Below are positions 5,709 through 63,410 of a DNA stretch of 64,000 nucleotides, one piece after another. Below the pieces are notes generated by a model. It did not search any database. It saw only the letters and a program-made list of their open reading frames with translations, and was not told the origin of the DNA. This DNA comes from Oscillospiraceae bacterium (GTDB taxonomy: Bacteria > Bacillota > Clostridia > UBA1212 > UBA1255): assembly GCA_015069165.1 (NCBI GenBank), contig SVJD01000005.1, positions 6,021 through 70,020 on the forward strand. The letters are read 5' to 3'. The position numbers and the translations under genes were made by a program. Position 1 is the first letter of the stretch. Each line of letters opens with the position of its first letter.

Positions 5709-6134
5709 TCATTTTTTAAATACCCAAAATTTATTTATCAAATAATTTTCAACAATCAACACCGGTGTCGCTATAAGTTTGCAGTATTCTTCCGGAATAC
5801 CCAAAGCATTCAGAAGCATAACAAAAAGAGCGCTGAGTGCTACATAAATCAGAAATGCAATTATAAATTTAACGCCTGTATGCTTGTTTCTTTCATCAAA
5901 AACAAATTTACTGTTTAAGATATAACTGTTGATTGCACCTGCGATATCACCGATCACAGAGCTTATAGCGGCGCTTAAAGAAGCGCCTGCTATTACGACG
6001 TTCAATCCTGCCAATCCAAATATTTTAAGCATTATCCAATTCACAACGAGAGCTACAATTGTATTTGATGCGCCCACGATACAAAAAAGAATAAATTGTT
6101 TGTATTTTTGCCACAACTCTTTAAATTTCTTCAC
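5709..6134 (-). CDS. GtrA family membrane protein
   Basis: Four-TM small protein with a GtrA-like pattern (FILFCIVGASNTIVALVVNW... INKFWVF). I prefer GTG at 6134, 6 nt after CAGGAGA, to the track start at 6158. Confidence 0.75.
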   Translation of the reverse strand: MKKFKELWQKYKQFILFCIVGASNTIVALVVNWIMLKIFGLAGLNVVIAGASLSAAISSVIGDIAGAINSYILNSKFVFDERNKHTGVKFIIAFLIYVALSALFVMLLNALGIPEEYCKLIATPVLIVENYLINKFWVFKK

Positions 6135-34723: not shown

Positions 34724-37354
34724 TTACTCTGTTCTCAATGCAACTACGGGATCTTTTTTTGCCGCGAATCTTGACGGTATAAGGCCTGCAATCAAAGTAA
34801 GACACATACTTATTACAACCAAAATAATCGCACCTTGCCAAGGTAAATGAGCCAAACCGTTTATATCTGTTATGAGCTCAATAATAATATTTATCGGAAT
34901 TATCAAAAGACACGTTACACCGATTCCTATGAGTCCCGCAACAAATCCTACAATAAGCGTTTCTGCATTAAATACTCTCGAAATATCTTTTTTTGAAGCT
35001 CCGATACTTCTGAGAATACCGATTTCTTTCGTTCTTTCAAGAACTGAAATATAAGTAATTATTCCTATCATTATAGATGAAACAATAAGCGAAATTGCAA
35101 CAAAAGCAATTAAAATATAACTGATAGAATTAATAATCGTCGTTACAGAAGACATCATAATACCGATGTAATCAGTATACTGTATTTTATCATTTTCTGA
35201 TTTTCCCTCATTATAATTCTTTATCTTCTCTACAATTTTCTCTTTTGCTTCAAAATCTACGGGATATATATTAATCACGGACGGATTATCAACATCTGCA
35301 ACACCCATAAGTTCAAGATTTCCGTCGTAAGTTGCCGTTGAAGTACCCATATACGATTGAATTGCCATCATTTGTTGCTCTTTGGTCATACTCATAAATT
35401 GAGCTTGCATTTCCGCAGGCATCTGTGCAACAATTCCCGCAATTTCCTCCTGTGTCATTTTATTAATGTCAAATGTTTCGCCGTTTGAAAACTTTTGTCC
35501 CGTAAAAATATCATATTCGGAATTTTCTTTTTGCGCTTTAACAACATCGCTGTTATTAACTTGTTCAATCAATTTAGGCATCAAATCTTTGTGATAACCC
35601 ACCATTCCGCCGGAAGCAGCCGTTTTGGCATCCTCTTTCGGAACAAACACACCTACAATATCAACATCGAAACCTTTGCTTGCGTTTTCAACGAGCTGTT
35701 TAATATAAACATTATCGGAAGACTTATCTACCCACCTGTGCTCACTTTCGCTGTACTCAAAATAGTCGGTTGTGGGCAAAACTTTATACGACAAAGACAT
35801 GAGATAATCAAACGTATATTTTTCTTCCTCGTTAGACGTTATTTCTTTGCCCGATGCCAAATCTTTCATCAAGCCCGAAAGCTCGGAAGTATCCTTTATC
35901 CCCAAAGTATAAAGTGAGTAGTCACTGATTTCCGCATTTTTATCAAGAATGATTACAGCCTGGTTATAGGCATTCGGAATTTCGCCGTAAATCTCATACT
36001 GTTCTTCCAAAAGCTCCCTGTTATTCATGAGTTCTGTCCAAACATTCATATTTGCACTCATCATTCCCATGGATGCTGAACCGCCGTCACCGGAAATACC
36101 CATCATTTCGTTAAAACCCAAAATGTCGAAAACTTGGCTGGGATTCACTTTTAAAACACCCTTTGAAGTATCTTTTTTGTATATATGCATGGGCGTGGTA
36201 TATGTGTATTTAATATCGGAAGTAAGTTCGGCAAAACCGTTTTCTTTACTTTCAAGGAAAAATTTAAATGACTTTAAATCGTTTACAACAACCTCTTTAG
36301 AAACAGCTTCAAGCATATCCATCATAACATCGTTTGAATACGCTGTATTTTCCTCTTTTGCAATATCTTCCTTATTGGCCATAGACATCATCGACATCAT
36401 AAGTGAAGACATATCCATAGTTGCCGACTCTATTGTAAGCGGATAACTTGACAGGGTTTCCGATTCTACTTTTTCTATATACAAATCAACTCCGCTGGAA
36501 AGTGCCAAAATCAAAGCAATTCCTATGATTCCGATACTGCCTGCAAAAGAAGTCATAAAAGTTCTTCCTTTTTTTGTAAGTAAGTTGTTAAAACTGAGAG
36601 AAAGCGCAGTAAAAAATGACATTGAAGTCTTATATTTTTTCTTTTTTACTTCCTGAACATCAGCTTTCTCTTCTGCAATATATACGTTTGTATCACTGAC
36701 AACTTCACCATCGAGAAGTCTTATAATTCTGTTAGAATATTGCTCAGCAAGTTCGGGATTATGAGTAACCATAATAACAAGCTTTTCGTTTGCAATTTCT
36801 TTTAATATTTCCATAATCTGAATACTTGTTTCAGAATCAAGCGCTCCGGTAGGCTCGTCAGCAAGCAAAATATCAGGATTGTTTACAAGCGCCCTTGCAA
36901 TTGCAACACGCTGCATTTGACCGCCTGACATCTGATTAGGCTTTTTGTGTGCTTGATCTTTAAGACCTACTTTTTCCAAAGCCTCCATTGCTCTTTTCTT
37001 TCTTTCTGCTTTGCCTACACCCGAAAGTGTCAAAGCAAGCTCTACGTTAGAAAGAACAGATTGATGCGAAATAAGATTATAACTTTGAAACACAAAACCG
37101 ATTTTATGATTTCTGTACGCATCCCAATCGCTGTCTTTATACTGCTTTGTGGACGTACCGTTAATTACAAGGTCACCGGATGTATATTGATCAAGACCGC
37201 CGATTATATTAAGAAGCGTTGTTTTGCCGCAACCGGAAGGGCCTAAAATTGCAACAAATTCGCTTTTGCGAAACTCCATACTCACACTTTTAAGTGCTTG
37301 TACTTGTAATGTGCCGGTATCATATGTTTTAGTGATATCTTTTAATTTTAACAT
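34724..37354 (-). CDS. fused ABC transporter ATP-binding protein / FtsX-type permease (MacB-like)
   Basis: N-terminal Walker A GPSGCGKTT, signature SGGQMQR and Walker B LLADEPT. These are followed by a TM segment, a large extracytoplasmic domain and a C-terminal FtsX four-helix module (ERTKEIGILRSIGA). Confidence 0.85.
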   Translation of the reverse strand: MLKLKDITKTYDTGTLQVQALKSVSMEFRKSEFVAILGPSGCGKTTLLNIIGGLDQYTSGDLVINGTSTKQYKDSDWDAYRNHKIGFVFQSYNLISHQSVLSNVELALTLSGVGKAERKKRAMEALEKVGLKDQAHKKPNQMSGGQMQRVAIARALVNNPDILLADEPTGALDSETSIQIMEILKEIANEKLVIMVTHNPELAEQYSNRIIRLLDGEVVSDTNVYIAEEKADVQEVKKKKYKTSMSFFTALSLSFNNLLTKKGRTFMTSFAGSIGIIGIALILALSSGVDLYIEKVESETLSSYPLTIESATMDMSSLMMSMMSMANKEDIAKEENTAYSNDVMMDMLEAVSKEVVVNDLKSFKFFLESKENGFAELTSDIKYTYTTPMHIYKKDTSKGVLKVNPSQVFDILGFNEMMGISGDGGSASMGMMSANMNVWTELMNNRELLEEQYEIYGEIPNAYNQAVIILDKNAEISDYSLYTLGIKDTSELSGLMKDLASGKEITSNEEEKYTFDYLMSLSYKVLPTTDYFEYSESEHRWVDKSSDNVYIKQLVENASKGFDVDIVGVFVPKEDAKTAASGGMVGYHKDLMPKLIEQVNNSDVVKAQKENSEYDIFTGQKFSNGETFDINKMTQEEIAGIVAQMPAEMQAQFMSMTKEQQMMAIQSYMGTSTATYDGNLELMGVADVDNPSVINIYPVDFEAKEKIVEKIKNYNEGKSENDKIQYTDYIGIMMSSVTTIINSISYILIAFVAISLIVSSIMIGIITYISVLERTKEIGILRSIGASKKDISRVFNAETLIVGFVAGLIGIGVTCLLIIPINIIIELITDINGLAHLPWQGAIILVVISMCLTLIAGLIPSRFAAKKDPVVALRTE

Positions 37355-37444
37355 ATATCAAACTCCATTCCCAAAAGAACTTTAAAACTCAAATTGTGCA
37401 ACCTGCATATTATACCATTTAAAATATAAAATTTGTATAAATTT

Positions 37445-49923: not shown

Positions 49924-52215
49924 ATGAAAAAAAGCTTATTTTCAGCAATTAAGGTTTGTTTGATGCTTTTAGTTTCTTTAGTTCTTGTTTTTGCACTTTG
50001 TTCATGCAACGGCGAAGAAGCACCCGAAGCTACTCAAGCACCTTCAACAGAACCCCCTGCAATTGCAACTTTTAAGCCCGTAGTTGAAATCAACTATGAC
50101 AAGACAGAATTCACAATCGTAGAAACAACGATTGTTGAATACATAGGTAAAGGCGGAGATGTTGTAATTCCCGAAAAAGTAACTGCAATCGGAGACATGG
50201 CGTTCAGCGGACGTTCCGACGTAACATCTGTTACTTTTACAAAGGACGTTGTTTCAATCGGTGAGAAAGCGTTTGAAAACTGTTCCGGACTGGGAGCAGG
50301 TTTTGTTCCCCCTTCTAACCTTTCATATCTCGGCGACAGCGCTTTTGCAGGATGCACAGGTATTACTGAGATAGAAATTCAAAACAAACCTATCGAAGTA
50401 GGTACTAACATCTTCGAAGGATGTACTTCATTGAAGAAAGTAATAATTCCTAAGACTTTCCAAATAATTCCCGACTATACTTTTGCCGGATGTTCTTCTC
50501 TTACAGATGTAACCATCGACAACGAAATCGTTTCTATCGGTGAGCACGCTTTTGACGGTTGCACAAGTCTTGAGAAATTTAATTTCCCCACAAAGACAAC
50601 AAAAATCGGCGACTACGCATTCACAGGATGTGAGAAACTTTCAGAAATCAACTTCCAGAGAGCTCTCGACGAAATCGGATATTTTGTATTCAATGACACT
50701 GCATGGTTTAACAATCAAGTTAAAGCTCAAAAGGAAAATACTCCGGCTGAAACACCTGCCGAGGGTAATGCAGATATTAACAAATACATCCTTGTAGGTC
50801 ACGATGTTATTATTTATTATATTGATGATAACGCAACAACATTAAATATACCTGACAAAGCATACGGTATTGCATCAGGTGCTTTTGACCACTGCATTGC
50901 AAATGTAGAAACTGTAAACTTTACAACATCAAGCAGCCTTGTAAAACTCGGTTCAGGCGCATTCAAAGATGCTGTTAAACTTACAACATTCAGCTTGCCT
51001 ACAAAGGTTACTATATTGAATAACGATGTATTCAGCGGTTGTGTTAGCATGTCTACATTCAATGTTGCAAGCAAATTGACATTCGTTGGTGATAACGCTT
51101 TCAAAAACTGCGAAAAGCTTACATCTATTTTCTTGCCTGATGATATTACTTCTATCGGCGACAATGCTTTCTATGGTTGTAAAGCTCTTAAGGAAGTTAC
51201 TCTCCCCGACTCTATTACAAGTCTCGGCGATTATGCTTTCAAAGATTGTAACGAACTTGCAAAAGTTATCATTCCTCTTAAATTGTCAGATATCGGTGTT
51301 CAAGCTTTCGACAACACAAAATGGTATAACGACCTCAGCGTTTATGAAGAAGCTCCCACAGAAAACCAATTCCACATTTTTGGTGACGGAATTCTTATCA
51401 AAGCTGACATTATTGACAATTCTTCAATTGTAATTCCCGAAAATGTAAAATCTATTGCAGCTTTCACATTTACAAACTGGGGCAAAATCAATGACAGAGA
51501 ATTCTACAATTCAAAGCTCCCTAAGAGTATTACAATTCCTGACGGTGTTACATCAATCGGCGATTATGCTTTCTACTTCTGCGACAACTTGGAAACTGTT
51601 TTCATTTCAAACACAGTTACCAACATCGGAGAAAAAGCATTCTACGGTTGTAAAAACCTTAAGTTAATTACTCTTCCCGAGTCTTTAACAGAAATCAAAG
51701 ATTATGCTTTCTACGGATGCAGTGCTCTTCCCGAGATTACATTGCCTTCCAATTTAACTTCAATCGGAAGCTATGCTTTCTATGATTGTTATAAACTTAC
51801 AGAAATCGAAATTCCCGCTTCGGTAAAATATGTAGGATCCAATGCTTTCAAAAACACAAGTTGGTTCTACTATAACACTGACGAAGAAATGATTGTCGGT
51901 GACGGTGTGCTTCTTAAAGTTACTGCTCCTTCCGCTGACATCGTTCTTTCAAACAATGTAAAATCATTTGCCGGCGGTGCTTTTGATTCTGCTAACATTC
52001 AGACAATTAAGCTCCCTGCTGCAGTAACGGAAATTCCCGAGTATGCATTCTCCGGTTGCGTAGACCTTAAAGAAGTAACAGGCGGCAACATCAGCAAAAT
52101 AGGAAAGCGTGCTTTCAACGGATGCTTCAAGATAGAGAGCTTCAATGCAGGCAGCGCAACTGTTGATGCAGAAGCTTACATTAACTCTTCTTTGGACAAA
52201 GCTGTTTCCGAGTAA
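49924..52215 (+). CDS. BspA-type leucine-rich repeat surface lipoprotein
   Basis: Signal/lipobox ...LVFALCSC. There are more than 20 tandem units of about 23 aa of the form IGd.AF.gC..L..i.iP..v.. Confidence 0.8.
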   Translation: MKKSLFSAIKVCLMLLVSLVLVFALCSCNGEEAPEATQAPSTEPPAIATFKPVVEINYDKTEFTIVETTIVEYIGKGGDVVIPEKVTAIGDMAFSGRSDVTSVTFTKDVVSIGEKAFENCSGLGAGFVPPSNLSYLGDSAFAGCTGITEIEIQNKPIEVGTNIFEGCTSLKKVIIPKTFQIIPDYTFAGCSSLTDVTIDNEIVSIGEHAFDGCTSLEKFNFPTKTTKIGDYAFTGCEKLSEINFQRALDEIGYFVFNDTAWFNNQVKAQKENTPAETPAEGNADINKYILVGHDVIIYYIDDNATTLNIPDKAYGIASGAFDHCIANVETVNFTTSSSLVKLGSGAFKDAVKLTTFSLPTKVTILNNDVFSGCVSMSTFNVASKLTFVGDNAFKNCEKLTSIFLPDDITSIGDNAFYGCKALKEVTLPDSITSLGDYAFKDCNELAKVIIPLKLSDIGVQAFDNTKWYNDLSVYEEAPTENQFHIFGDGILIKADIIDNSSIVIPENVKSIAAFTFTNWGKINDREFYNSKLPKSITIPDGVTSIGDYAFYFCDNLETVFISNTVTNIGEKAFYGCKNLKLITLPESLTEIKDYAFYGCSALPEITLPSNLTSIGSYAFYDCYKLTEIEIPASVKYVGSNAFKNTSWFYYNTDEEMIVGDGVLLKVTAPSADIVLSNNVKSFAGGAFDSANIQTIKLPAAVTEIPEYAFSGCVDLKEVTGGNISKIGKRAFNGCFKIESFNAGSATVDAEAYINSSLDKAVSE

Positions 52216-52371: not shown

Positions 52372-53796
52372 ATGGGCAAAAGTGTTAAAGATATCATGAA
52401 TCTTATTAAAGAAAAAGATATCAAAATGATTGATTTTAAAATGGTAGACATAAATGGACAGTATCGTCATGTTACTATTCCGGCTCAACATTTTTCAGAA
52501 GAAACAATGGTTACCGGCGTAGGTTTTGATGCATCAAATTACGGTTACGCAGTAGTTGAAAAAAGTGATATGGTATTTATACCCGATCCTGACACAGCTT
52601 TAATCGATCCTTTCTGTGAAATACCTACGTTGTCAATGAGCGGTAACGCAATGATTATTGATACACCGAATAATAAGCCTCTTGCACAATATCCGAGAAA
52701 TATAGTTCAGGCTGCAGAGCAGTATATGAAGGATTCCGGTATTGCCGATACAATGCTTATTCTTCCTGAGTTTGAGTTTTATCTTTTCGACCAAGTAGGT
52801 TGGGAAGTTCAATCAAATTCCGTAGCAGCTTTTGTTGATGCAAAACAATCATACTGGAACAGTATGACAGAAGGTATGGGACAAGTAGTTCCCAAGCAAA
52901 AAGCTTACCACATTGCTAAACCTTTCGATACATCTTACGAATGCAGAAGTGAAATGTGTATGCTTATCGAGGAAGCAGGTATCCCCGTTAAATACCATCA
53001 CCCCGAAGTAGCAGCTTCAGGTCAGTTCGAAATAGAGCCTATGCTCGGCGAAATGTCAAAAATGGCTGATGCTACAATGATGATTAAATATATCATTCAC
53101 AACACAGCAGCTAAATACGGCAAGAGCGCAACACTTATGCCGAAGCCTGTTTACGGTGAAGCAGGAAGCGGTATGCATGTACATATCATGCTCTTTAAAG
53201 ACGGCGAACCTCTCTTCTCTGATGACAACGGTTATTCACATTTGAGCGAAACTGCTCACTACTTTATGGGCGGTCTTCTTAAACATATCGGCTCTTTGTG
53301 TGCAATCACAAACCCCAGCACAAACTCATTCAAGCGTCTTGTGCCCGGTTTTGAAGCTCCTGTTACTGTTGGCTATGCAACATCAAACAGAAGTGCCGTT
53401 ATCAGAATTCCGGCATACGCAAAACAGCCTTCTGAGCGCCGTTTTGAGCTCCGTAACCCTGATGCTACATGTAACCCCTATTTCTGCTACGCAGCGATTT
53501 TAATGGCAGGTCTCGACGGTATTAAGAATAAAATCGATCCTCATGCTAATGGTTGGGGTCCTTACGATGTAAACCTTTACAATTTGCCCGAGGAAGAAAA
53601 AGCAAAACTCAAAGGTTTGCCCACATCACTCGAAGCAGCTCTCGATGCTCTTGAAGCAGATTACGAGTACCTTACAGCCGGCGGAGTATTCCCCGAAGTG
53701 CTCATCAAAAACTTTATTGCCACAAAGCGCAAAGAGTGCAGTGAACTTTCAAAGATCCCCCACCCTGCTGAGTTTGAGAAATATTATAATCTTTGA
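52372..53796 (+). CDS. glnA: type I glutamine synthetase
   Basis: GS signatures FDASNYGY (beta-grasp), KPVYGEAGSGMHVH (ATP site) and NPDATCNPY; 474 aa. Confidence 0.95.
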   Translation: MGKSVKDIMNLIKEKDIKMIDFKMVDINGQYRHVTIPAQHFSEETMVTGVGFDASNYGYAVVEKSDMVFIPDPDTALIDPFCEIPTLSMSGNAMIIDTPNNKPLAQYPRNIVQAAEQYMKDSGIADTMLILPEFEFYLFDQVGWEVQSNSVAAFVDAKQSYWNSMTEGMGQVVPKQKAYHIAKPFDTSYECRSEMCMLIEEAGIPVKYHHPEVAASGQFEIEPMLGEMSKMADATMMIKYIIHNTAAKYGKSATLMPKPVYGEAGSGMHVHIMLFKDGEPLFSDDNGYSHLSETAHYFMGGLLKHIGSLCAITNPSTNSFKRLVPGFEAPVTVGYATSNRSAVIRIPAYAKQPSERRFELRNPDATCNPYFCYAAILMAGLDGIKNKIDPHANGWGPYDVNLYNLPEEEKAKLKGLPTSLEAALDALEADYEYLTAGGVFPEVLIKNFIATKRKECSELSKIPHPAEFEKYYNL

Positions 53797-55554: not shown

Positions 55555-55587
55555 AAAAAGCCGACCACGATGTGGCCGGCTTTTTTT
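55555..55587. terminator. bidirectional terminator between convergent operons
   Basis: Stem GCCGACCAC / GTGGCCGGC (one mismatch), flanked by A5 and T7 runs. Confidence 0.65.
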
Positions 55588-55594
55588 ATCTTTT

Positions 55595-56008
55595 TTAAGC
55601 ATTTAAAATTTTTTTCACTGACAAAATATTTTGTCCGTTTTTATACTCGTACATAATTTCGTCCATTAATTTCTTTACCATATATATACCAAGTCCGCCG
55701 ATTTGTCTTTCATCTGCCGAAAGTGTTATATCAGGTTCGGTTTGTTTTGTAGGGTCATAAGGTATACCTTCATCAATAAATGTTATAAGTACTGCCAAAG
55801 GATTCTCTGTAAATTCCACTTTTACAGTTACATTGCCATCAGAAAGATTATATGCGTAATGTGCAATATTTCCAAAAAGTTCATCAATAGCTATGTCAAT
55901 CTGCATTTGGACTTTTATGGGGCAATCAAAAGCTTCAAGTTGTTCATTTACAAAATCCGTAACAGTTTTAATATTTTCAACTGTAGCACAAACAGTTATC
56001 TCTTTCAT
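55595..56008 (-). CDS. anti-sigma-factor-type serine kinase (RsbW/SpoIIAB-like GHKL ATPase)
   Basis: 137 aa with an N-box-like DELFGNIAHYA, a G-box DEGIPYDP and an ATP-lid GGLGIYMV. A 4-nt overlap joins it to the upstream phosphatase gene. Confidence 0.85.
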   Translation of the reverse strand: MKEITVCATVENIKTVTDFVNEQLEAFDCPIKVQMQIDIAIDELFGNIAHYAYNLSDGNVTVKVEFTENPLAVLITFIDEGIPYDPTKQTEPDITLSADERQIGGLGIYMVKKLMDEIMYEYKNGQNILSVKKILNA

Positions 56009-57834
56009 TCAGCTTCTCCCTCCCCATTAAATTTAAAACACAACATAGTAATATCATCAAATTGAGGTACTTCGCCAACAAAAGAATCAACGTCGTTTTT
56101 GATTTCATCGCAGATTCCTCTTGTATCAAGATTCTCAATTTTTTGCAAAACATCAAGGAGACGACTTTCTCCGTAAAGTTCATTCTGAATATCCATCGCC
56201 TCTGTTACACCATCAGTGTAAAGATAAATAACATCACCTTTTTCAAGCTGATATTCATTCTTGCTGTAACGAATACCCTCCATACCTGCAAGTACAAAAT
56301 TTGCCCTCGATTTAAGAGTTGTAACACTTCCGTCAATATGCTTAATGACAGGTGGATTGTGGCCTGCATTCACGAAACTTATCATACCTGTTTTCGTATC
56401 TAAAAAGCCCATCCACACCGTAACAAACATACCGGCATCGTTGCTTTCACAAAGTTTTTCATTGGCAGTTGTAAAAACTTGTTCAATATCCATTCCCGAT
56501 TCCGCATAACTTTTAAGGAGTGTTTTTGAAGTCATCATAAACATTGCAGCCGGAATTCCTTTGCCTGAAACATCGGCAACAAGAAACGCCAGAGTGTCTT
56601 CGTCAACAAAATAGAAGTCATAGAAATCACCACCAACTTCTTTTGCTGTATACATTGCAGCACTGATTTCAAATTCATTACGGTTAGGATAAGGAGGAAA
56701 TACCGACGGCAATGCCGAATGTTGAATAGCTTTAGCAAATGCAAGTTCAGCATCAATACGAGCTTCCGCTTCTGAAATATATTTTTTAAGTGTATTTACG
56801 GTAGCATTTATATCATTTGAAAGAGCGTCAAACTCAATGCTGGAACGCACATCAACAGTCGTATTGAGATTACCTGCTGTTATGTCGGAAAGTGATTCAT
56901 TCACTCTGTAAATATTATCAACAACAAGGCGTTTTACAAGATAAAAAATCACAATAAACAAAGATGCAAAAACAATCAACTGCATGATTGTTGTGATACA
57001 CACAGAAACATTACGCGATAGAGCCGCCTCAATTTTAGGCATAACTGCAAAAATGTGATAACCTTCCGTCACTTGATGCATACAAAAACACGATTCTCCA
57101 TACACTTTAGCGGTAAAATTCTGTCTTTCAGGAACTTCCGAAGTATCAAAGCAAATTCCGGTAACACCAATATTTTGACCTTCATTACCATAGCGGTCAC
57201 TGATAATGTTCCCTTTTTCATCAACGATGATAATCGAACCGTTTTCTCCCACGTGGCGATTATGGGTGACACCAATCACAAATTCATCAATGTCTTTTTG
57301 AAAGCGTTCCGCTCCGTAACCTACTTGAACAAAACCTCCGTTTTCAAGGACAACTCCGCCGTATTTACGCGAGATTGACGCATCATAAGAAACAGGCTGA
57401 TAACTCTGCACATATTCCTTTTCACCCGAAAGCAAAACCATAAATTCTGCCGATTGCACTCCGCTTCTCATATCATAATTTAAAAAATAAGGATACGTGC
57501 TTGCAATGATGATTCCGGCATTATTTACGCAATTGATTTCTGTTACATCATATTTTTGGGTAAGTTCCGCAAGCAATTCTGAATTTATATTTTCTGATTT
57601 GTTTAATTCGTCTGCGATTTGATAAGAAAGTTTTAGCAAATTTTTATCGGAAGCATCAATAATATCTTCCTTGACATCCGAAATATTCAAAGATAGCAAC
57701 TGTACTGCGTTGTTTTTTGACAATTGGGTCTGAAAAACCCATAAAAATACCGTTGTTGCTAAAAAAGCAACAATTACAAGCACCAACAACCATTGTCTGA
57801 ATATTCCCGAAATCTTTTGCTTTTTATTTTTCAT
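56005..57834 (-). CDS. membrane sensor PP2C phosphatase (SpoIIE/RsbU family) with extracytoplasmic Cache-like region and HAMP
   Basis: Layout: TM (aa 14-34), an extracytoplasmic region of about 250 aa with two PAS/Cache-like segments (VNNAGIIIAST, IIIVDEKGNIISD), a second TM, a HAMP-like linker, then a PP2C core (EVGGDFYDF, FLVADVSGKG, LYTDGVTEA, DDITML). Confidence 0.85.
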   Translation of the reverse strand: MKNKKQKISGIFRQWLLVLVIVAFLATTVFLWVFQTQLSKNNAVQLLSLNISDVKEDIIDASDKNLLKLSYQIADELNKSENINSELLAELTQKYDVTEINCVNNAGIIIASTYPYFLNYDMRSGVQSAEFMVLLSGEKEYVQSYQPVSYDASISRKYGGVVLENGGFVQVGYGAERFQKDIDEFVIGVTHNRHVGENGSIIIVDEKGNIISDRYGNEGQNIGVTGICFDTSEVPERQNFTAKVYGESCFCMHQVTEGYHIFAVMPKIEAALSRNVSVCITTIMQLIVFASLFIVIFYLVKRLVVDNIYRVNESLSDITAGNLNTTVDVRSSIEFDALSNDINATVNTLKKYISEAEARIDAELAFAKAIQHSALPSVFPPYPNRNEFEISAAMYTAKEVGGDFYDFYFVDEDTLAFLVADVSGKGIPAAMFMMTSKTLLKSYAESGMDIEQVFTTANEKLCESNDAGMFVTVWMGFLDTKTGMISFVNAGHNPPVIKHIDGSVTTLKSRANFVLAGMEGIRYSKNEYQLEKGDVIYLYTDGVTEAMDIQNELYGESRLLDVLQKIENLDTRGICDEIKNDVDSFVGEVPQFDDITMLCFKFNGEGEAE

Positions 57835-57845
57835 AAAACATTCCT

Positions 57846-58142
57846 TTATTCAATCGTCAAAATATTACTGAATCCTGTTACTTCAAAAATTTCAGAGATA
57901 GTTTCGTTGACATTTCGTACAATCATTTTTCCTTGTTTATTCATTGTTTTTTGTGCAGAAAGAAGCACACGAAGTCCGGCCGAAGATAAATAATCAAGTG
58001 CCGCAAAATCAAAAACAAGTTTTTCAATACCGTTCAAGCTTTGATTAAGCTTAGCTTCAAGCTCGGGTGCAGTTGCGGTATCGAGCCTGCCTTCAAGAGC
58101 AATTATAAGTTCTCTTTCATTTATTGCTTTGTTTATATTCAT
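57846..58142 (-). CDS. STAS domain anti-sigma-factor antagonist (RsbV/SpoIIAA-like)
   Basis: 98 aa. The conserved phospho-acceptor context DYLSSAGLRVLL is present, as is the C-terminal FEVTGF pattern. Confidence 0.9.
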   Translation of the reverse strand: MNINKAINERELIIALEGRLDTATAPELEAKLNQSLNGIEKLVFDFAALDYLSSAGLRVLLSAQKTMNKQGKMIVRNVNETISEIFEVTGFSNILTIE

Positions 58143-58159: not shown

Positions 58160-59251
58160 TTATTTTATTTTTGCAATTATAAGATTTGTATATTCATCTT
58201 CGCTGATTTCGGAATACTCGATACTTTCCGCCGCGTTCTGCGCAATTTTCAGAGAGAGAATATTGTCTGAATTTATAGGATTGAAAGTTTTACCATTATA
58301 TTTGGCCTGCATTAAAATACTTTCTTCTTCCTGTGAATATTCAACCGTTATATTCAGTTTAAATTCATTTGACATTTCAGCAATGATAATCTGTACACAA
58401 AGTTCTTCAAATACCGATTGCATATGGTAAATCGACTTTTGAGAAATACCGCTTCTCCTGCCAAATTCCTCAAGACTTGTGTTAAAACCAATAAAGTCAA
58501 AGTTCTTTGAAGTTATATCTTTTTCAAATACTTTAACACGTTTAATAAAACGAGCAGTCTTTTCTCTTTGCGGATTGTCAAATATCTGCTCCGGCGTGCC
58601 TTCTTCGTAAATTCCGCCATCATCCATATAGAACACTCTGTTTGCAATTTCACGTGCAAAACGCATTTCGTGGGTTACAATCATCATTGTAAGTCCTTTT
58701 TTGCCCAAATCCTTAATAACAGTCTGAACCTCTCCCACCATTGTAGGGTCAAGAGCTGATGTAGGCTCGTCAAATAGTATTATTTCAGGATCCATGGCAA
58801 GTGTTCTTGCAATGGCAACTCTTTGCTTTTGACCACCTGAAAGTTCATCAGGGTAATTAAAAGCTTTGTCGGCAAGGCCCACGGTGCGAAGAAGTTGCAT
58901 TCCGTCATCATACGCCTGTTGCTTTGATTTGCCGAGCAAATCCATTGGTGCCGCCATAATATTTTCGATAATATTAAGGTGATTAAAAAGGTTGAACGAC
59001 TGGAAAACCATTCCCATTTTTTGCCTTATTTTATTAATATCGCATTTTTTGTCAGTTATACAATTATCACCAACCCATATTTCGCCGGAAGTGGGAGTTT
59101 CAAGCCTGTTTATACACCTTATAAGTGTGGATTTCCCCGTACCGGAAGGTCCGATAATCGAAATTATGTCGCCTCTGTTTATCTCAACACTTACATCCTT
59201 TAAGGGCGTAGCGTTGGGATATTCTTTTCTTAAATGATTGATTTTTATCAT
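58160..59251 (-). CDS. polar amino acid ABC transporter ATP-binding protein with an unusual ~120-aa C-terminal extension
   Basis: Walker A GPSGTGKST, signature LSGGQKQR, Walker B ILFDEPTSALD and H-loop VTHEM lie within aa 1-242. Residues about 245-363 are extra compared with GlnQ/HisP-type ATPases. Confidence 0.9.
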   Translation of the reverse strand: MIKINHLRKEYPNATPLKDVSVEINRGDIISIIGPSGTGKSTLIRCINRLETPTSGEIWVGDNCITDKKCDINKIRQKMGMVFQSFNLFNHLNIIENIMAAPMDLLGKSKQQAYDDGMQLLRTVGLADKAFNYPDELSGGQKQRVAIARTLAMDPEIILFDEPTSALDPTMVGEVQTVIKDLGKKGLTMMIVTHEMRFAREIANRVFYMDDGGIYEEGTPEQIFDNPQREKTARFIKRVKVFEKDITSKNFDFIGFNTSLEEFGRRSGISQKSIYHMQSVFEELCVQIIIAEMSNEFKLNITVEYSQEEESILMQAKYNGKTFNPINSDNILSLKIAQNAAESIEYSEISEDEYTNLIIAKIK

Positions 59252-61494
59252 CTTACTACCCCCTTCAAAATACTTTTATTTTTTCGTCTTTTTGGGTCTG
59301 TTTTTTTCTTAGCAATACCCATAAGCATTGTAACTATCCATATTAGAGCAAAGTATATAAGCGCAACGGCAATGAGCGGGAAAAAGGCTTCATACGTATT
59401 ACTTCTTATAATATCTCCCATTCTCGTAAGGTCATTTACAGCAATATAGCCGACAATTGACGTTGCTTTAATAAGACCTATAATTTCTCCTGTGTAGGCA
59501 GGTATAAACATTTTCATTGCCTGAGGAAGGATAATTTTAAAAAATGTTTTGTTTCTGCTGTAACCAAGTGCATAGGCTGCCTCTGTTTGCCCTTTATCAA
59601 CATTTTCGACTGTTATATCAAGTTGCCCGTAAACAAACGAGCTGAATGTCATAATAAACCCTATAATAGCTACGATTATTCCGCTTATATCTGCCTTGGC
59701 AAAAACCAAATAGTATAAAATCATCAAGATAACAAGAATTGGCGTACCTGAAATAATGATTGAATGGACTTTCGCAAGTTTCTTGGCAATCAACGATAGA
59801 AGTTTATATTTCGAACGGGAAATCATATAGAAAACAAAACCGAATACCGTGCCGCCGACTACAGAGCAAAAGCTGATTAAAACCGTTACGGCAAGACCTT
59901 TGACAATGAGTTTCCAACGACTCTCACGTATAAATGTTTTTTCAAAGCTTTCTTTTATTGACGCAAGAAAATCCGTTTCGGCGTTATCATTTTCATAAAT
60001 TACCATAATTATATCAGACACCATATACGGCTCACAAAAATTAACACTTTCTTTTCGTTCATCTGTTATATAGATACCGCAGGAAACTACATCATATTTA
60101 CCCTCAGTAAGACCTGCCACACCTGCAGTCCATTGAGCATCTTCAAATTTAGGCTTATAACCGTATTTCTCGCAGAACATATAGAGAATTTCAACTTCAA
60201 AACCTGCATGTTCATTGTTTAACATATACACAAAAGGTTTTCTTGACGAATCAAGTGCAATTTTCAACTCTTTTTCATTTGCTGACAAATCCTGAATTTT
60301 GATATTTTCTGTTGGTTCAACCGTTCCGCACCATTTGTCCCAAATTTTATCAAGAGTTCCTTCTGCGCGAAGTTCGTCAAGGTATGCATTCATTTGAGTT
60401 TGAAGTTCACTGCCCTTTTCGTTCTTTCCGAAAGCATAGCCGATTTCCACATTGTAGTCCGGCACTTTAATATAAGAAAGACCTTTGTCCGTTCTTTTTG
60501 CAGCGTTGTAATTTGGCATATCAAGGAGGAATCCGTCAACCTTACCCTGTTTTACGCACTGGAAAAGATCCGGGAATGATTGATACGCATCAATATTAGC
60601 ATCCGGGAAAAGTTCTTTTGAATAACCGTCATAAATCGAGCCGACTATAACACCGAGAGTTGCGTTTTTGAAATCATCAAGAGTTCTTACTGCAGAACCT
60701 GAAGATTTAACAACGAGCACCATTTCATCGGAATAATAAACATCCGAAAAATCAAGACTGTTTTTTCTTTCTTCGTTAATGGTTGCGCCGGAAGCACCAA
60801 TATCATAAATACCACTTTTTATTCCTGAAAGAATTCCTGTAAAAGACGAGTCGAAAAACTCAATGTTATATCCGTACTCTCCTGCAAATTTAGTTAAAAA
60901 TTCTATATCATAACCTGCATATTTTGCATTTTTTATATACACAAAAGGTTTTTGTTCAGAACAAATCGCAACACGTATTGTGCCGTTTTTGCCGCTTAAC
61001 TTCTCGTAATCTGCAAATTCCGAAGGTTCGCTTGAAGAAAACCACTTTTCTTGAAGCTGTTTAAGTTTGCCGTTGGTCTTTTGATTTTTTATGAATTCGT
61101 TCAATTGCTTTTGCAAATCAAGTTTTTCACCTTTATTGAACATAAAACCGTAATTACTCACAGCAATCGGTTCTTCAACACGTTTAACTGCTATTCCTTC
61201 CCATTGCATTGCACATAAAACAGAATTTTCAGTTGAAAAAGTTTCAATTTTATCTGACATAAGCGCCATAACAGAATCTGAAGGATTGGAATACTCAACA
61301 TGCTCTGCATCCGGCAAAAGTTCTTTGAGAAGGTTCGACTGTATAGAACCTGCTACCGAACCTACTTTAGATTGACTGAAATCAGAAATACGAGTTTTAT
61401 TCGTGTCGGAATCCTTAACCTCGGTTGTGTTACAACCTGTAAGAGACAACAGTAAAATCACGGCAGATAACAACACCACAAAAAATCTTTTCAT
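59248..61494 (-). CDS. fused amino acid ABC transporter substrate-binding domains plus permease (lipoprotein)
   Basis: Lipobox LTGC. It contains a partial SBP module, a complete SBP_bac_3 module, a second partial module and then a HisM/GlnP-type permease (EAAYALGYS EAA loop). ATG at 61494 sits 9 nt after AAGGAGG. Confidence 0.85.
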   Translation of the reverse strand: MKRFFVVLLSAVILLLSLTGCNTTEVKDSDTNKTRISDFSQSKVGSVAGSIQSNLLKELLPDAEHVEYSNPSDSVMALMSDKIETFSTENSVLCAMQWEGIAVKRVEEPIAVSNYGFMFNKGEKLDLQKQLNEFIKNQKTNGKLKQLQEKWFSSSEPSEFADYEKLSGKNGTIRVAICSEQKPFVYIKNAKYAGYDIEFLTKFAGEYGYNIEFFDSSFTGILSGIKSGIYDIGASGATINEERKNSLDFSDVYYSDEMVLVVKSSGSAVRTLDDFKNATLGVIVGSIYDGYSKELFPDANIDAYQSFPDLFQCVKQGKVDGFLLDMPNYNAAKRTDKGLSYIKVPDYNVEIGYAFGKNEKGSELQTQMNAYLDELRAEGTLDKIWDKWCGTVEPTENIKIQDLSANEKELKIALDSSRKPFVYMLNNEHAGFEVEILYMFCEKYGYKPKFEDAQWTAGVAGLTEGKYDVVSCGIYITDERKESVNFCEPYMVSDIIMVIYENDNAETDFLASIKESFEKTFIRESRWKLIVKGLAVTVLISFCSVVGGTVFGFVFYMISRSKYKLLSLIAKKLAKVHSIIISGTPILVILMILYYLVFAKADISGIIVAIIGFIMTFSSFVYGQLDITVENVDKGQTEAAYALGYSRNKTFFKIILPQAMKMFIPAYTGEIIGLIKATSIVGYIAVNDLTRMGDIIRSNTYEAFFPLIAVALIYFALIWIVTMLMGIAKKKTDPKRRKNKSILKGVVR

Positions 61495-61525
61495 TGTTAA
61501 AAGCCTCCTTTTAGTGTTTTTTAGT

Positions 61526-61554
61526 ATTTTAGAACGCATGATTTTTTTTGTCAA
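61526..61554 (-). promoter_or_regulatory. sigma-A-type promoter of the ABC / partner-switching operon
   Basis: On the minus strand: TTGACA (61554-61549), 17-nt spacer, TAAAAT (61531-61526). The leader is short, leaving no room for a riboswitch. Confidence 0.45.
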
Positions 61555-61751: not shown

Positions 61752-63410
61752 ATGAATATATCTTCCCTTCAACAGGCCAGATATCAGTACCAACCAAAAT
61801 TGCCCGGTATGCTCAGAAACGGTATTTCTGATATATGCGTAAAAACGGGTGCCCCTACTGAGAGTGTGGCAGACCAAGAAAAAATCAAATCTCTTTTCCC
61901 TAATACTTATGGTAAAAATGAGATTACTTTCCAAAAAGGAAGCAACACTTCAGAAGCTAAAAAGCAAGTTGTAGGTGTTATTCTCTCCGGCGGACAAGCT
62001 CCCGGCGGACACAACGTTATTTGCGGTCTTTATGACGCTTTGAAAGCAACTGACAAAGACAATGTGCTCTACGGATTTAAAGGTGGTCCCAGTGGTCTTT
62101 TAGAAGACAGCTTCGTAATTTTTGATGATGAATATATCAATCAATATCGCAACACAGGCGGTTTTGATATTATCGGTTCAGGCCGTACAAAGCTCGAAAC
62201 AGAAGAACAATTTGCTGTAGTTGCGGAAGTTTGCAAGAAGCACGGTATTACTGCTATTGTTATTATCGGCGGTGACGATTCAAACACTAACGCTGCAGTG
62301 CTTGCTGAATATTTCGCAGCTCACAACAGCGGCGTACAAGTTATCGGTTGCCCTAAGACAATTGACGGCGACTTGAAAAATGAAGATATCGAATGTTCTT
62401 TCGGTTTCGATACAGCTACTAAAACTTACAGCGAAATCGTAGGAAATATCGGACGTGATGCTAACTCTGCAAAGAAATATTGGCATTTCGTTAAAGTAAT
62501 GGGCCGCTCGGCATCACACGTTGCTTTGGAGACAGCTCTTCAAACACAGCCCAACATCTGCCTTATCGGTGAAGAAGTTGCAGCTAAAAAAATGTCTTTG
62601 GCACAAATCACTGATTACATTGCTGATTCTGTTGCTAATCGTGCTTCAAACGGATGTAATTTCGGTGTTGCCGTAATTCCCGAGGGAATTGTTGAGTTCG
62701 TTCCTGAATTTTCTATACTTATTGCAGAAATCAACGAGCTTTTGGCAGGCGAAAAAGCTGATGCTTTCAATGCTCTTCCCTCTTGGGCTGACAAATACGC
62801 TTTCATCAAAGCCGGTTTAACAAAAGAATCTATGGCAGTTTTCGAAATTTTGCCTGAGGCTATTCAGCAACAGCTTTTCTTGGATCGTGACCCCCACGGT
62901 AACGTACAAGTTTCTTTGATTGAGTCAGAAAAGCTTTTCTCTGCTATGGTTAAAGAAAACTTGGCAGCTCGTAAAGCAGCCGGCACTTATAAGGGCAAAT
63001 TCTCCCCCATTCACCATTTCTTGGGATATGAGGGACGTTGTGCATTCCCTTCAAATTTCGACGCTGACTACTGCTATTCATTAGGCTATAACGCATTTAT
63101 GCTTATTCAATACGGTTTCAACGGATATCTTTCCAAGGTTTCAAATTTGAGCAAACCTGCTGAAGAATGGATTGCAGGCGGTATGCCCATAACAAAGATG
63201 ATGAACATCGAAAGACGTCACGGCCATGACAAACCTGTTATCCGCAAAGCTCTCGTTGAGCTTGACAGCAAGCCTTTCAAATATTTCGAAGCGAACAGAG
63301 AAAAATGGGCTGTTGAAACATGCTACGTATTCCCCGGTGCTATTCAGTACTTCGGACCCAGCGAAGTTTGCGATACAACAACAAAAACATTGGCTTTGGA
63401 AAAGGCTTAA
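61752..63410 (+). CDS. pfp: diphosphate--fructose-6-phosphate 1-phosphotransferase (PPi-dependent phosphofructokinase)
   Basis: PFK fold with the PPi-type residues: GGDDSNT (Asp instead of Gly) and PKTIDGDL (Lys instead of Gly). MGR motif present; 552 aa long form. Confidence 0.9.

Follow-up and report, generated by a model that had tools for sequence, protein, structure and literature searches.

Why does the ATPase of a bacterial amino-acid importer end in a domain that resembles a serine kinase, and why is it encoded next to the genes of a partner switch? This question is raised by a five-gene locus of an Oscillospiraceae bacterium (assembly GCA_015069165.1, contig SVJD01000005.1), of which positions 6,021 to 70,020 of the forward strand were analysed; this whole stretch of 64,000 nucleotides (nt) is the window, and all coordinates below refer to it. 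The ATP-binding cassette (ABC) ATPase in question carries a C-terminal extension, which an earlier note on the same DNA had taken for a pseudokinase domain derived from an RsbW-like anti-sigma factor. Structure prediction, profile comparisons and bridging sequences revealed that the extension is homologous to RsbW/SpoIIAB-type anti-sigma-factor kinases and that this relationship is real. As for its role, the reading that we rate slightly above even chances is that a STAS protein encoded by the following gene would dock on this dead kinase domain, so that the ABC importer would be controlled post-translationally by a partner switch.

A kinase-like fold at the C-terminus of the ATPase

The ATPase is the second gene of the locus and is composed of two parts:

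58160-59251, reverse strand: gene 2, ABC ATPase of 363 amino acids (aa), a GlnQ/ArtP-type domain followed by the C-terminal extension
58541-59251, reverse strand: residues 1-237, polar-amino-acid-type ABC nucleotide-binding domain with Walker A (GPSGTGKST), LSGGQ and Walker B (ILFDEPTSALD) motifs (ABC_tran, E=2.4e-36)
58163-58540, reverse strand: residues 238-363, RsbW/SpoIIAB-fold pseudokinase domain without ATP-binding motifs (AlphaFold2, Foldseek, hhalign, Pfam and motif statistics)

Residues 1-239 correspond over their full length to the GlnQ model (240 positions) as well as to the TcyN, HisP and ArtP models. The nearest solved ATPases comprise 240-242 aa (4yms_A shares 55% identity over 238 aligned columns), Foldseek retrieved 4yms_A and ArtP with template modelling (TM) scores of 0.96-0.97 relative to the target, and solved ABC ATPases cover only the first 238 residues of the full-length AlphaFold2 model (predicted local distance difference test, pLDDT, 93.4; predicted TM score, pTM, 0.75). 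None of the solved polar-amino-acid ATPases (240-258 aa) has such a C-terminal domain. Since residues 1-239 fill the 240-position model and the solved relatives end at 240-242 aa, the extension is real and unusual for this class, and the earlier remark that the protein exceeds the usual length of about 240 aa is confirmed. The same note had placed the extension at 58163-58519 (reverse strand), and these coordinates do correspond to residues 245-363 of the open reading frame (ORF), but the structural model puts the start of the domain earlier, at residue ~238 (window position 58540). Over residues 1-239, the scores of the TcyN and GlnQ models (281 bits) fall short of the respective equivalog cut-offs (406 and 379), and therefore no specific substrate was assigned.

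The kinship of the extension had been proposed from an alignment, made by eye, with the kinase encoded in the same locus. On its own, this alignment has no statistical weight, as pairwise BLASTP found only a 27-residue segment (E=0.25), and the Smith-Waterman score (z=0.95) was reached by 16% of 2000 shuffles. The extension itself matches Pfam HATPase_c_2 over profile positions 14-82 with 17.2 bits (E=0.005) and does not reach the gathering cut-off of 27.4 bits. The predicted structure is more informative. A domain model built with AlphaFold2 from a 16-sequence alignment obtained a pLDDT of 95.3 and a pTM of 0.88, and its order of elements (b-a-a-b-b-a-b-b) is of the Bergerat type, the same as in SpoIIAB; it agrees with the succession of helix, two strands, F/Y-(N/D)-P turn, helix and terminal strands read earlier from the letters. 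In a Foldseek search against the PDB, all of the top 20 matches were anti-sigma-factor-type (RsbW-fold) kinases (UsfX, SpoIIAB, Bacillus subtilis RsbW and SiaB). The best was 8ih8_C (E=1.2e-6, TM 0.80), and the structures of Mycobacterium tuberculosis UsfX bound to RsfB or SigF (8ih8/8jzt) gave E-values of about 1e-6 and TM scores of 0.72-0.80. The following ranks were occupied by the RsbW domain of Rv1364c and then by histidine-kinase ATP-binding domains.

Profile comparisons led to the same family. When 52 diverse extensions were compared with the kinase family in hhalign, the two aligned over 86 columns (E=3.4e-5), with a gap of 10 residues where the kinases have the ATP lid; with the narrow alignments used first the E-value was 0.08, and the comparison became informative only from 52 diverse members on. 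The register of the by-eye alignment was recovered by hhalign, by Pfam HATPase_c_2 and by structure comparison. In a Pfam scan of the 52 members, HATPase_c_2 was the sole family matched by more than one of them (10 of 52, best E=5e-5), and one divergent extension passes its threshold (28.7 bits versus 27.4, positions 12-125). The latter belongs to a divergent subgroup, found in loci L091 and L037, which has a longer lid with an 'AHLGV' remnant, and a hidden Markov model (HMM) built from 35 clear kinases reaches the extension-bearing ATPases of these two loci among 8187 ORFs (E=4e-6 and 6.5e-4); the first round of this HMM alone was used, as later iterations took in extension-like sequences. 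The similarity to GHKL anti-sigma factors foreseen in the earlier note is thus found both in the hhalign comparison and in a bridging member above the Pfam threshold.

The chance-level pairwise similarity and the sub-threshold Pfam match would also fit an accidental resemblance, in which the extension would be an unrelated fold (ACT/NIL, TOBE or HPr-like) or a linker without specific function. A weak but recurrent match to the phosphocarrier HPr points the same way. With the domain or the profiles as query, HPr appeared among solved structures with E-values of 0.04-0.9; the profile match (E=0.04-0.06) extends over 47-50 residues and aligns YNGKTVNLKS...SLGIAKGA (58163-58312, extension residues 72-121) with YNGKTFNPINSDNILSLKIAQNA, the HPr Ser46 region. 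It was taken as a chance match and the HPr identity was rejected, because no HPr appeared in the fold search and only the last third of the domain is covered. More generally, the 50 best Foldseek matches to the extension included no ACT, NIL, TOBE, CBS or HPr fold, and no TOBE, NIL/ACT or CBS match was obtained with Pfam at E<=1, so the fold search returned anti-sigma-type kinases and none of the ACT, NIL or TOBE regulatory folds that the earlier note had named as alternatives. Given the confident model, the uniform structural matches, the profile links with their bridging sequences and the strong conservation across the family, an accidental resemblance is extremely improbable.

Remodelling of the former ATP pocket

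The positions of the extension were equated with kinase motifs by hhalign, and their residues were counted in 130 non-redundant domains, with the following outcome:

58403-58408, reverse strand: codons of Glu282-Glu283, the invariant pair on the N-box-equivalent helix (hhalign register)
Residue before the N-box Glu: E45 of the domain (Glu282); Glu in 99% of the 130 domains
N-box Glu (kinase E43): E46 of the domain (Glu283); Glu in 100% of the 130 domains
58391-58393, reverse strand: N-box Asn (kinase N47), replaced by Q50 of the domain (Gln287); Gln in 92%, Asn in 3%
N-box His (kinase H50): Leu, Ile or Met in the extension family
58298-58300, reverse strand: G1 Asp (kinase D79, adenine-binding), replaced by Y81 of the domain (Tyr318); Tyr in 90%, otherwise Phe, His or Trp, and Asp in 0 of 130
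G1 Gly (kinase G81): Gly320 in the window ATPase; kept in 92%
Lid and G2 box: 27 residues in the kinase (G81 to G107) and 14 in the extension (13 shorter); GxG in 0 of 130

The extension thus lacks all three motifs by which RsbW/SpoIIAB kinases are recognized, namely E-x-x-x-N of the N-box, D-x-G of the G1 box and G-x-G-x-G of the G2 box and lid. The earlier claim that ATP-binding motifs are absent holds for the G1 Asp, the G2 glycines, half of the lid and the N-box His, but needs correction for the rest of the N-box, where the Glu is strictly kept and the Asn has become Gln; judging from the aligned sequences, the N-box is remodelled, with an invariant Glu and a conservative Asn-to-Gln exchange. 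As the G1 Asp, the lid and the GxG motif are lost and the N-box Asn is changed, ATP binding by the extension is, on the evidence of these motifs, very unlikely. Taken together, Foldseek, hhalign, Pfam, the kinase HMM and the degenerate motifs support the view of the earlier note that a pseudokinase domain derived from an RsbW-like anti-sigma factor is present here.

Compared with the active RsbW, SpoIIAB and SiaB kinases (HATPase_c_2), among them the 137-aa kinase of the same operon, the extension shares the order of elements, the N-box Glu and an aromatic-x-G-x-x-F-(D/N)-P turn that follows the second pair of strands, but it is only ~15% identical to them and differs in the exchanges listed above (Asn to Gln, His to Leu, G1 Asp to Tyr), in the missing G2 glycines and in a lid shorter by 13 residues. 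Because these catalytic features are missing and the Pfam threshold is not reached, we file it as a degenerate, separately evolving family of the RsbW/SpoIIAB superfamily. By fold and descent it is a member of this superfamily, and it is outside the known families of ABC regulatory domains. One further residue, Asp252 (D15 of the domain; 58496-58498), located in an F-D-F turn between the first strand and the first helix, is invariant (130/130), and none of the known kinase motifs corresponds to it.

The strongest conservation lines the former ATP pocket (E45, E46, Q50 and Y81), and no obvious protein surface. This is what would be expected if the extension were a ligand-sensing domain acting without any STAS protein, whose remodelled pocket (Glu-Glu, Gln and Tyr) binds a small molecule, e.g. 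an amino acid, and whose two copies keep the ATPase dimer open, in a trans-inhibition like that of the MetN C2 domain. The absence of partner-switching genes at some of the related loci described below would also agree with it. Several observations speak against such a role: STAS, PP2C and kinase genes are linked to the extension in at least six different arrangements across three bacterial classes, even truncated ATPase genes have kept the extension and a STAS gene immediately behind it, and no ligand-binding regulatory fold (ACT/NIL, TOBE or CBS) was matched by Pfam or Foldseek. Ligand sensing is thus regarded as unlikely.

The operon and its relatives in other genomes

In the window, the ATPase gene is the second of five genes on the reverse strand, which are accompanied by a promoter-like and a terminator-like element:

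61526-61554, reverse strand: promoter-like site, TTGACA-17-TAAAAT (11/12), a consensus match only, ~30 nt upstream of the likely ATG of gene 1
59248-61554, reverse strand: gene 1, GlnP-like fusion of two tandem substrate-binding domains and a permease (Pfam SBP_bac_3, 2e-59; BPD_transp_1, 7e-19)
57846-58142, reverse strand: gene 3, single-domain STAS protein of the anti-sigma-factor antagonist type, 98 aa (STAS, 8.4e-18; TIGR00377, 1.7e-21)
56005-57834, reverse strand: gene 4, membrane sensor phosphatase with HAMP and PP2C/SpoIIE domains, 609 aa (SpoIIE, 1.4e-50)
55595-56008, reverse strand: gene 5, RsbW-like serine kinase, 137 aa (HATPase_c_2, 5.3e-20; RsbW models, 2.4e-12)
55555-55585, reverse strand: terminator-like hairpin with a 14-bp stem (7 G-C pairs) and a T-rich tail, 10 nt past the kinase stop

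The likely true start of gene 1 is the ATG at 61494, giving a protein of 748 aa (the same call was made in contigs L001-L006). Promoter-like consensus sites are not more numerous in this region than in shuffles. Each of the five gene assignments is backed by Pfam and NCBIfam models. Genes 1 and 2, as well as genes 4 and 5, overlap by 4 nt, the STAS gene begins 17 nt past the ATPase stop and the remaining intergenic gap is 11 nt; the terminator-like hairpin marks the predicted end of the five-gene operon. The STAS protein contains the conserved YLSSAGLR loop, and the S-S-A-G-L-R part of this loop is invariant in 21 STAS proteins, each encoded by the STAS gene nearest to an extension-bearing ATPase; from this sequence, Ser53 is the likely phospho-acceptor. 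In the phosphatase, two membrane segments (predicted by reading of the sequence) surround an outer domain of ~240 aa, which is weakly dCache-like (dCache_1, 0.05; HAMP, 0.004; each below the Pfam cut-off). The motifs of the kinase are intact (ELFGN...H, DEG and GGLG), and its N, G1 and G2 boxes are conserved in 13 relatives. The trio of a partner switch is thus encoded together (8e-18, 1e-50 and 5e-20 for STAS, SpoIIE and HATPase_c_2), and phosphotransfer between its members is predicted. No second STAS, PP2C or RsbW-type kinase gene was found in the remaining ~58 kb of the 64-kb window. The same five-gene operon was found again on many metagenome contigs, and the kinase of the window is 100% identical to a protein of Oscillospiraceae/Ruminococcaceae genomes assembled from metagenomes.

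A word-indexed search with the extension returned 18 close relatives, mostly gene fragments, while a profile search run exhaustively over 1.84 billion representatives yielded 392 clusters (50% identity) at E<=0.001. In every member with enough sequence the domain is located C-terminally to a GlnQ-type ATPase, and some members are single chains of 900-1150 aa which combine binding domains, permease, ATPase and extension. The family occurs mostly in Clostridia of herbivore and other animal guts. The only name given to the protein in public records is 'amino acid ABC transporter ATP-binding protein', and the domain has no annotation. Two further architectures, a response-regulator receiver joined to the extension (P0008, on a contig of 1.4 kb) and a PF19864 stretch joined to it (P0015, on a contig of <1 kb), look like chimeras of assembly or gene calling.

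Gene neighbourhoods were compared in a scan of one genome per species with a 13-sequence extension alignment, which returned 80 loci; these were mapped with HMMs built from the window proteins, and partner-switching genes were counted within 8 kb. Most of the loci belong to gut or rumen Clostridia (Acutalibacteraceae, Oscillospiraceae and Lachnospiraceae), and further carriers are Phascolarctobacterium, two Spirochaetales, Thermoclostridium and Pelotomaculum. Of the 80 loci, 48 have one or more genes for a STAS protein, a PP2C protein or an RsbW-type kinase. When only the 28 loci with 7 kb or more of sequence on each side are counted, 22 have at least one such gene, 14 have a STAS gene and 10 have all three. 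The STAS gene directly follows the ATPase in 13 of the 70 loci with enough downstream sequence. By a general estimate, and not by measurement, a random 16-kb stretch would contain such a gene in at most ~5-7% of cases. The earlier note had raised the question of whether carriers of the extension always neighbour STAS genes; the answer is a broad family with frequent linkage which is not universal.

Across Clostridia, Negativicutes and Spirochaetales at least six gene orders were distinguished: the module lies directly downstream of the ATPase, 1.6-3.7 kb downstream or, as a whole, upstream; the STAS gene lies upstream of the transporter with the phosphatase and kinase downstream; the module is ordered kinase-STAS-phosphatase; or it is located on the opposite strand. 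These differing gene orders argue that the linkage has been maintained and not inherited once. In locus L037 (2182-10773) one STAS-PP2C-kinase module is placed between two extension-bearing transporters, and in L091 (1856-7860) two such transporters stand in tandem; at each of these loci, one of the two extensions belongs to the divergent kinase-like subgroup, at or near the HATPase_c_2 threshold.

In several loci the N-terminal part of the ATPase has been lost and the ORF of the extension is intact (L007, 6672-7328, also L008-L010; L011, 6406-6846; L046, 6006-6884; L055, 7812-8381; L056, 1421-2017). The lost part includes Walker A, and in some cases also the signature motif or nearly the whole ATPase domain. 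A STAS gene is located directly downstream of the truncated genes in L007-L009, L055 and L056. These loci may reflect a transport-independent role of the domain, or they may be recent pseudogenes. Conversely, modules with a 77%-identical kinase (L092, 4853-12300; L095, 4844-12318), which consist of a STAS protein, a PP2C protein of 607-610 aa and the kinase, adjoin a 157-aa protein and two Peptidase_C39 ABC exporters (bacteriocin-export type). The same switch may serve other targets. The 157-aa protein was considered as a free-standing extension and this was rejected, as it gave no match; a hydrophobic, probably membrane-spanning segment is located at its N-terminus.

Both groups of loci bear on an explanation in which the transporter is the sensor and not the target: the dead-kinase domains would bind the STAS protein (or the kinase) or let it go according to whether the ATPase cycles, and would in this way report the amino-acid flux to a target of the switch whose gene is located elsewhere. 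A model for such an arrangement is the maltose system, in which idle MalK sequesters the activator MalT. The operon contains no output gene (sigma factor or enzyme) other than the transporter, the module also occurs without such a transporter and can thus have other targets, and the retention of the extension after loss of the ATPase N-terminus, several times with a STAS gene directly downstream, suggests a role beyond transport. Against this stands the phosphatase, whose own extracytoplasmic sensor domain and HAMP domain provide the module with an input; moreover, no sigma factor or candidate output was found near any of the 80 loci, where six domain types only were searched. A sensor role of the transporter is considered improbable, to about the same degree as ligand sensing.

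The transporter as a possible target of the partner switch

In the favoured mechanism, the dead kinase domain of the ATPase would be the receptor for the STAS protein of gene 3. This protein would be phosphorylated by the separate, intact RsbW-like kinase and dephosphorylated, upon a signal from outside, by the membrane HAMP-PP2C phosphatase. Only one of its phosphorylation states, probably the unphosphorylated one, would dock on the C-terminal domains of the ATPase. Docking would then alter the closure of the two ATPase subunits and change amino-acid uptake, either by activation or by inhibition. It may be speculated that the invariant Glu-Glu pair, which lines the remnant of the nucleotide pocket, faces the phospho-acceptor loop of the STAS protein and rejects phospho-serine. 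Taken more broadly, the odds are even that the phospho-switch would either gate the importer directly, turning uptake on or off in seconds and without transcription, or receive reports of the transporter's activity.

That the domain keeps STAS binding and would serve as a docking site for the partner-switching module, as the earlier note had suggested, is plausible in view of the gene neighbourhood and of a kinase-dead precedent (PMC7693655). In Mycobacterium smegmatis, RsbW1, the homologue of UsfX, has no kinase activity and binds the unphosphorylated STAS protein RsfB, which is phosphorylated by a separate kinase, RsbW2 (PMC7693655). UsfX is the best structural match to the extension, and the inactivity of RsbW1 together with the existence of a separate kinase constitutes the same division of labour as proposed here. 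UsfX/RsbW1 is, however, free-standing and has a sigma factor as its other partner, whereas the extension is fused to an ABC ATPase with no sigma gene nearby; in the extension, moreover, the lid is shortened and the G1 Asp replaced.

The same work offers a precedent for another arrangement, in which the extension would pair with the free RsbW-like kinase in a mixed dimer of the SpoIIAB type and tether or silence it at the transporter. SpoIIAB/RsbW-type proteins are homodimeric, and M. smegmatis RsbW3 works through its binding to RsbW1, with which it probably forms a heterodimer (PMC7693655); a linked kinase gene is, in addition, present at many of the loci. In an assembled transporter, though, the two identical C-terminal domains are adjacent and would presumably sooner pair with one another, and loci L042, L047 and L082 have a STAS gene and no kinase detected near the ATPase. 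Pairing with the kinase is accordingly given a low probability, clearly below that of ligand sensing or of a sensor role.

Several points weigh against docking of the STAS protein on the extension. No partner-switching gene lies within 8 kb at six of the 28 fully flanked loci, most of them from related Clostridia of the rabbit gut; these loci have no other conserved neighbour either, the ATPase being the last gene of its operon and its neighbours unrelated. The loci are phylogenetically clustered, and so the counts overstate independence, and the linkage counts stand without a matched base rate from extension-less ATPases. The related modules in L092 and L095 adjoin exporters and not an amino-acid importer. 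Finally, in SpoIIAB-SpoIIAA complexes (1TH8) the ATP lid reportedly contributes to the interface with the STAS protein, while in the extension this lid is halved.

Comparable elements are known separately from other systems. In the Mla system, the ABC ATPase MlaF is regulated through direct binding of the STAS protein MlaB, and a C-terminal extension of MlaF takes part as well (PMC7367683). The likeness to the locus described here consists in a single-domain STAS protein encoded with an ABC ATPase. However, MlaB contacts the nucleotide-binding domain itself, the MlaF extension is a short tail and not a folded kinase-like domain, and the abstract of that work describes no kinase/phosphatase pair acting on MlaB (PMC7367683). 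In addition, Mla transports lipids and belongs to Gram-negative bacteria. The regulatory domains of MalK, MetN, PotA, CysA and OpuA/ProV occupy the same position in the protein and presumably follow the same logic, that of a dimeric C-terminal module controlling ATPase closure, but none of them is related to GHKL kinases; MetN, MalK, PotA and CysA align with the window protein over the ATPase domain only, and where an alignment runs on into their regulatory domains the root mean square deviation is ~10 A. SiaABCD of Pseudomonas, whose SiaB is among the structural matches of the extension, and HenR/All4160 of Anabaena (bioRxiv 10.64898/2026.04.08.717354) likewise combine STAS, PP2C and RsbW-like kinase proteins with a non-sigma output, an enzyme in place of transcription. 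The difference is that the output here would be a transporter, and that a fossil kinase domain would mediate its recognition.

Literature searches turned up no account of an ABC ATPase with an anti-sigma-like domain. As partner switches without a sigma factor and regulatory domains of ABC importers are both already known, the architecture is not categorically new. To our knowledge, post-translational control of ABC importers is limited to a handful of regulators (MalK, MetN, CBS domains in importers of osmolytes, and PII acting on nitrate importers), and we know of no regulatory domain for the polar-amino-acid class. If STAS docking on the ATPase is correct, the kinase-derived receptor, widespread in gut Clostridia, would add a new class to the regulatory domains of ABC importers, and partner switching would gain a new kind of output, with a new target acquired by duplicating the kinase, inactivating one copy and fusing it to the target. 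It would also account for partner-switching modules without a neighbouring sigma factor. The mechanism is directly testable with a few purified proteins, and defining the family of 392 clusters would improve the annotation of many genomes.

The surroundings of the operon contain the following genes on the opposite strand:

52372-53796, forward strand: glutamine synthetase, 474 aa
53964-54989, forward strand: Band_7/SPFH protein
61752-63410, forward strand: phosphofructokinase of the PFK family (Pfam PF00365), 552 aa

The nearby glutamine synthetase is compatible with a nitrogen or amino-acid role of the transporter, without being proof of it. Farther away, the forward strand encodes, by reading of the sequence, a secreted 763-aa protein with repeated leucine-rich-type units (49924-52215). 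On the reverse strand, a stop-to-stop frame of ~876 codons (34727-37357) matches the ABC ATPase-domain model (E=1e-63) and gives no match to the extension model.

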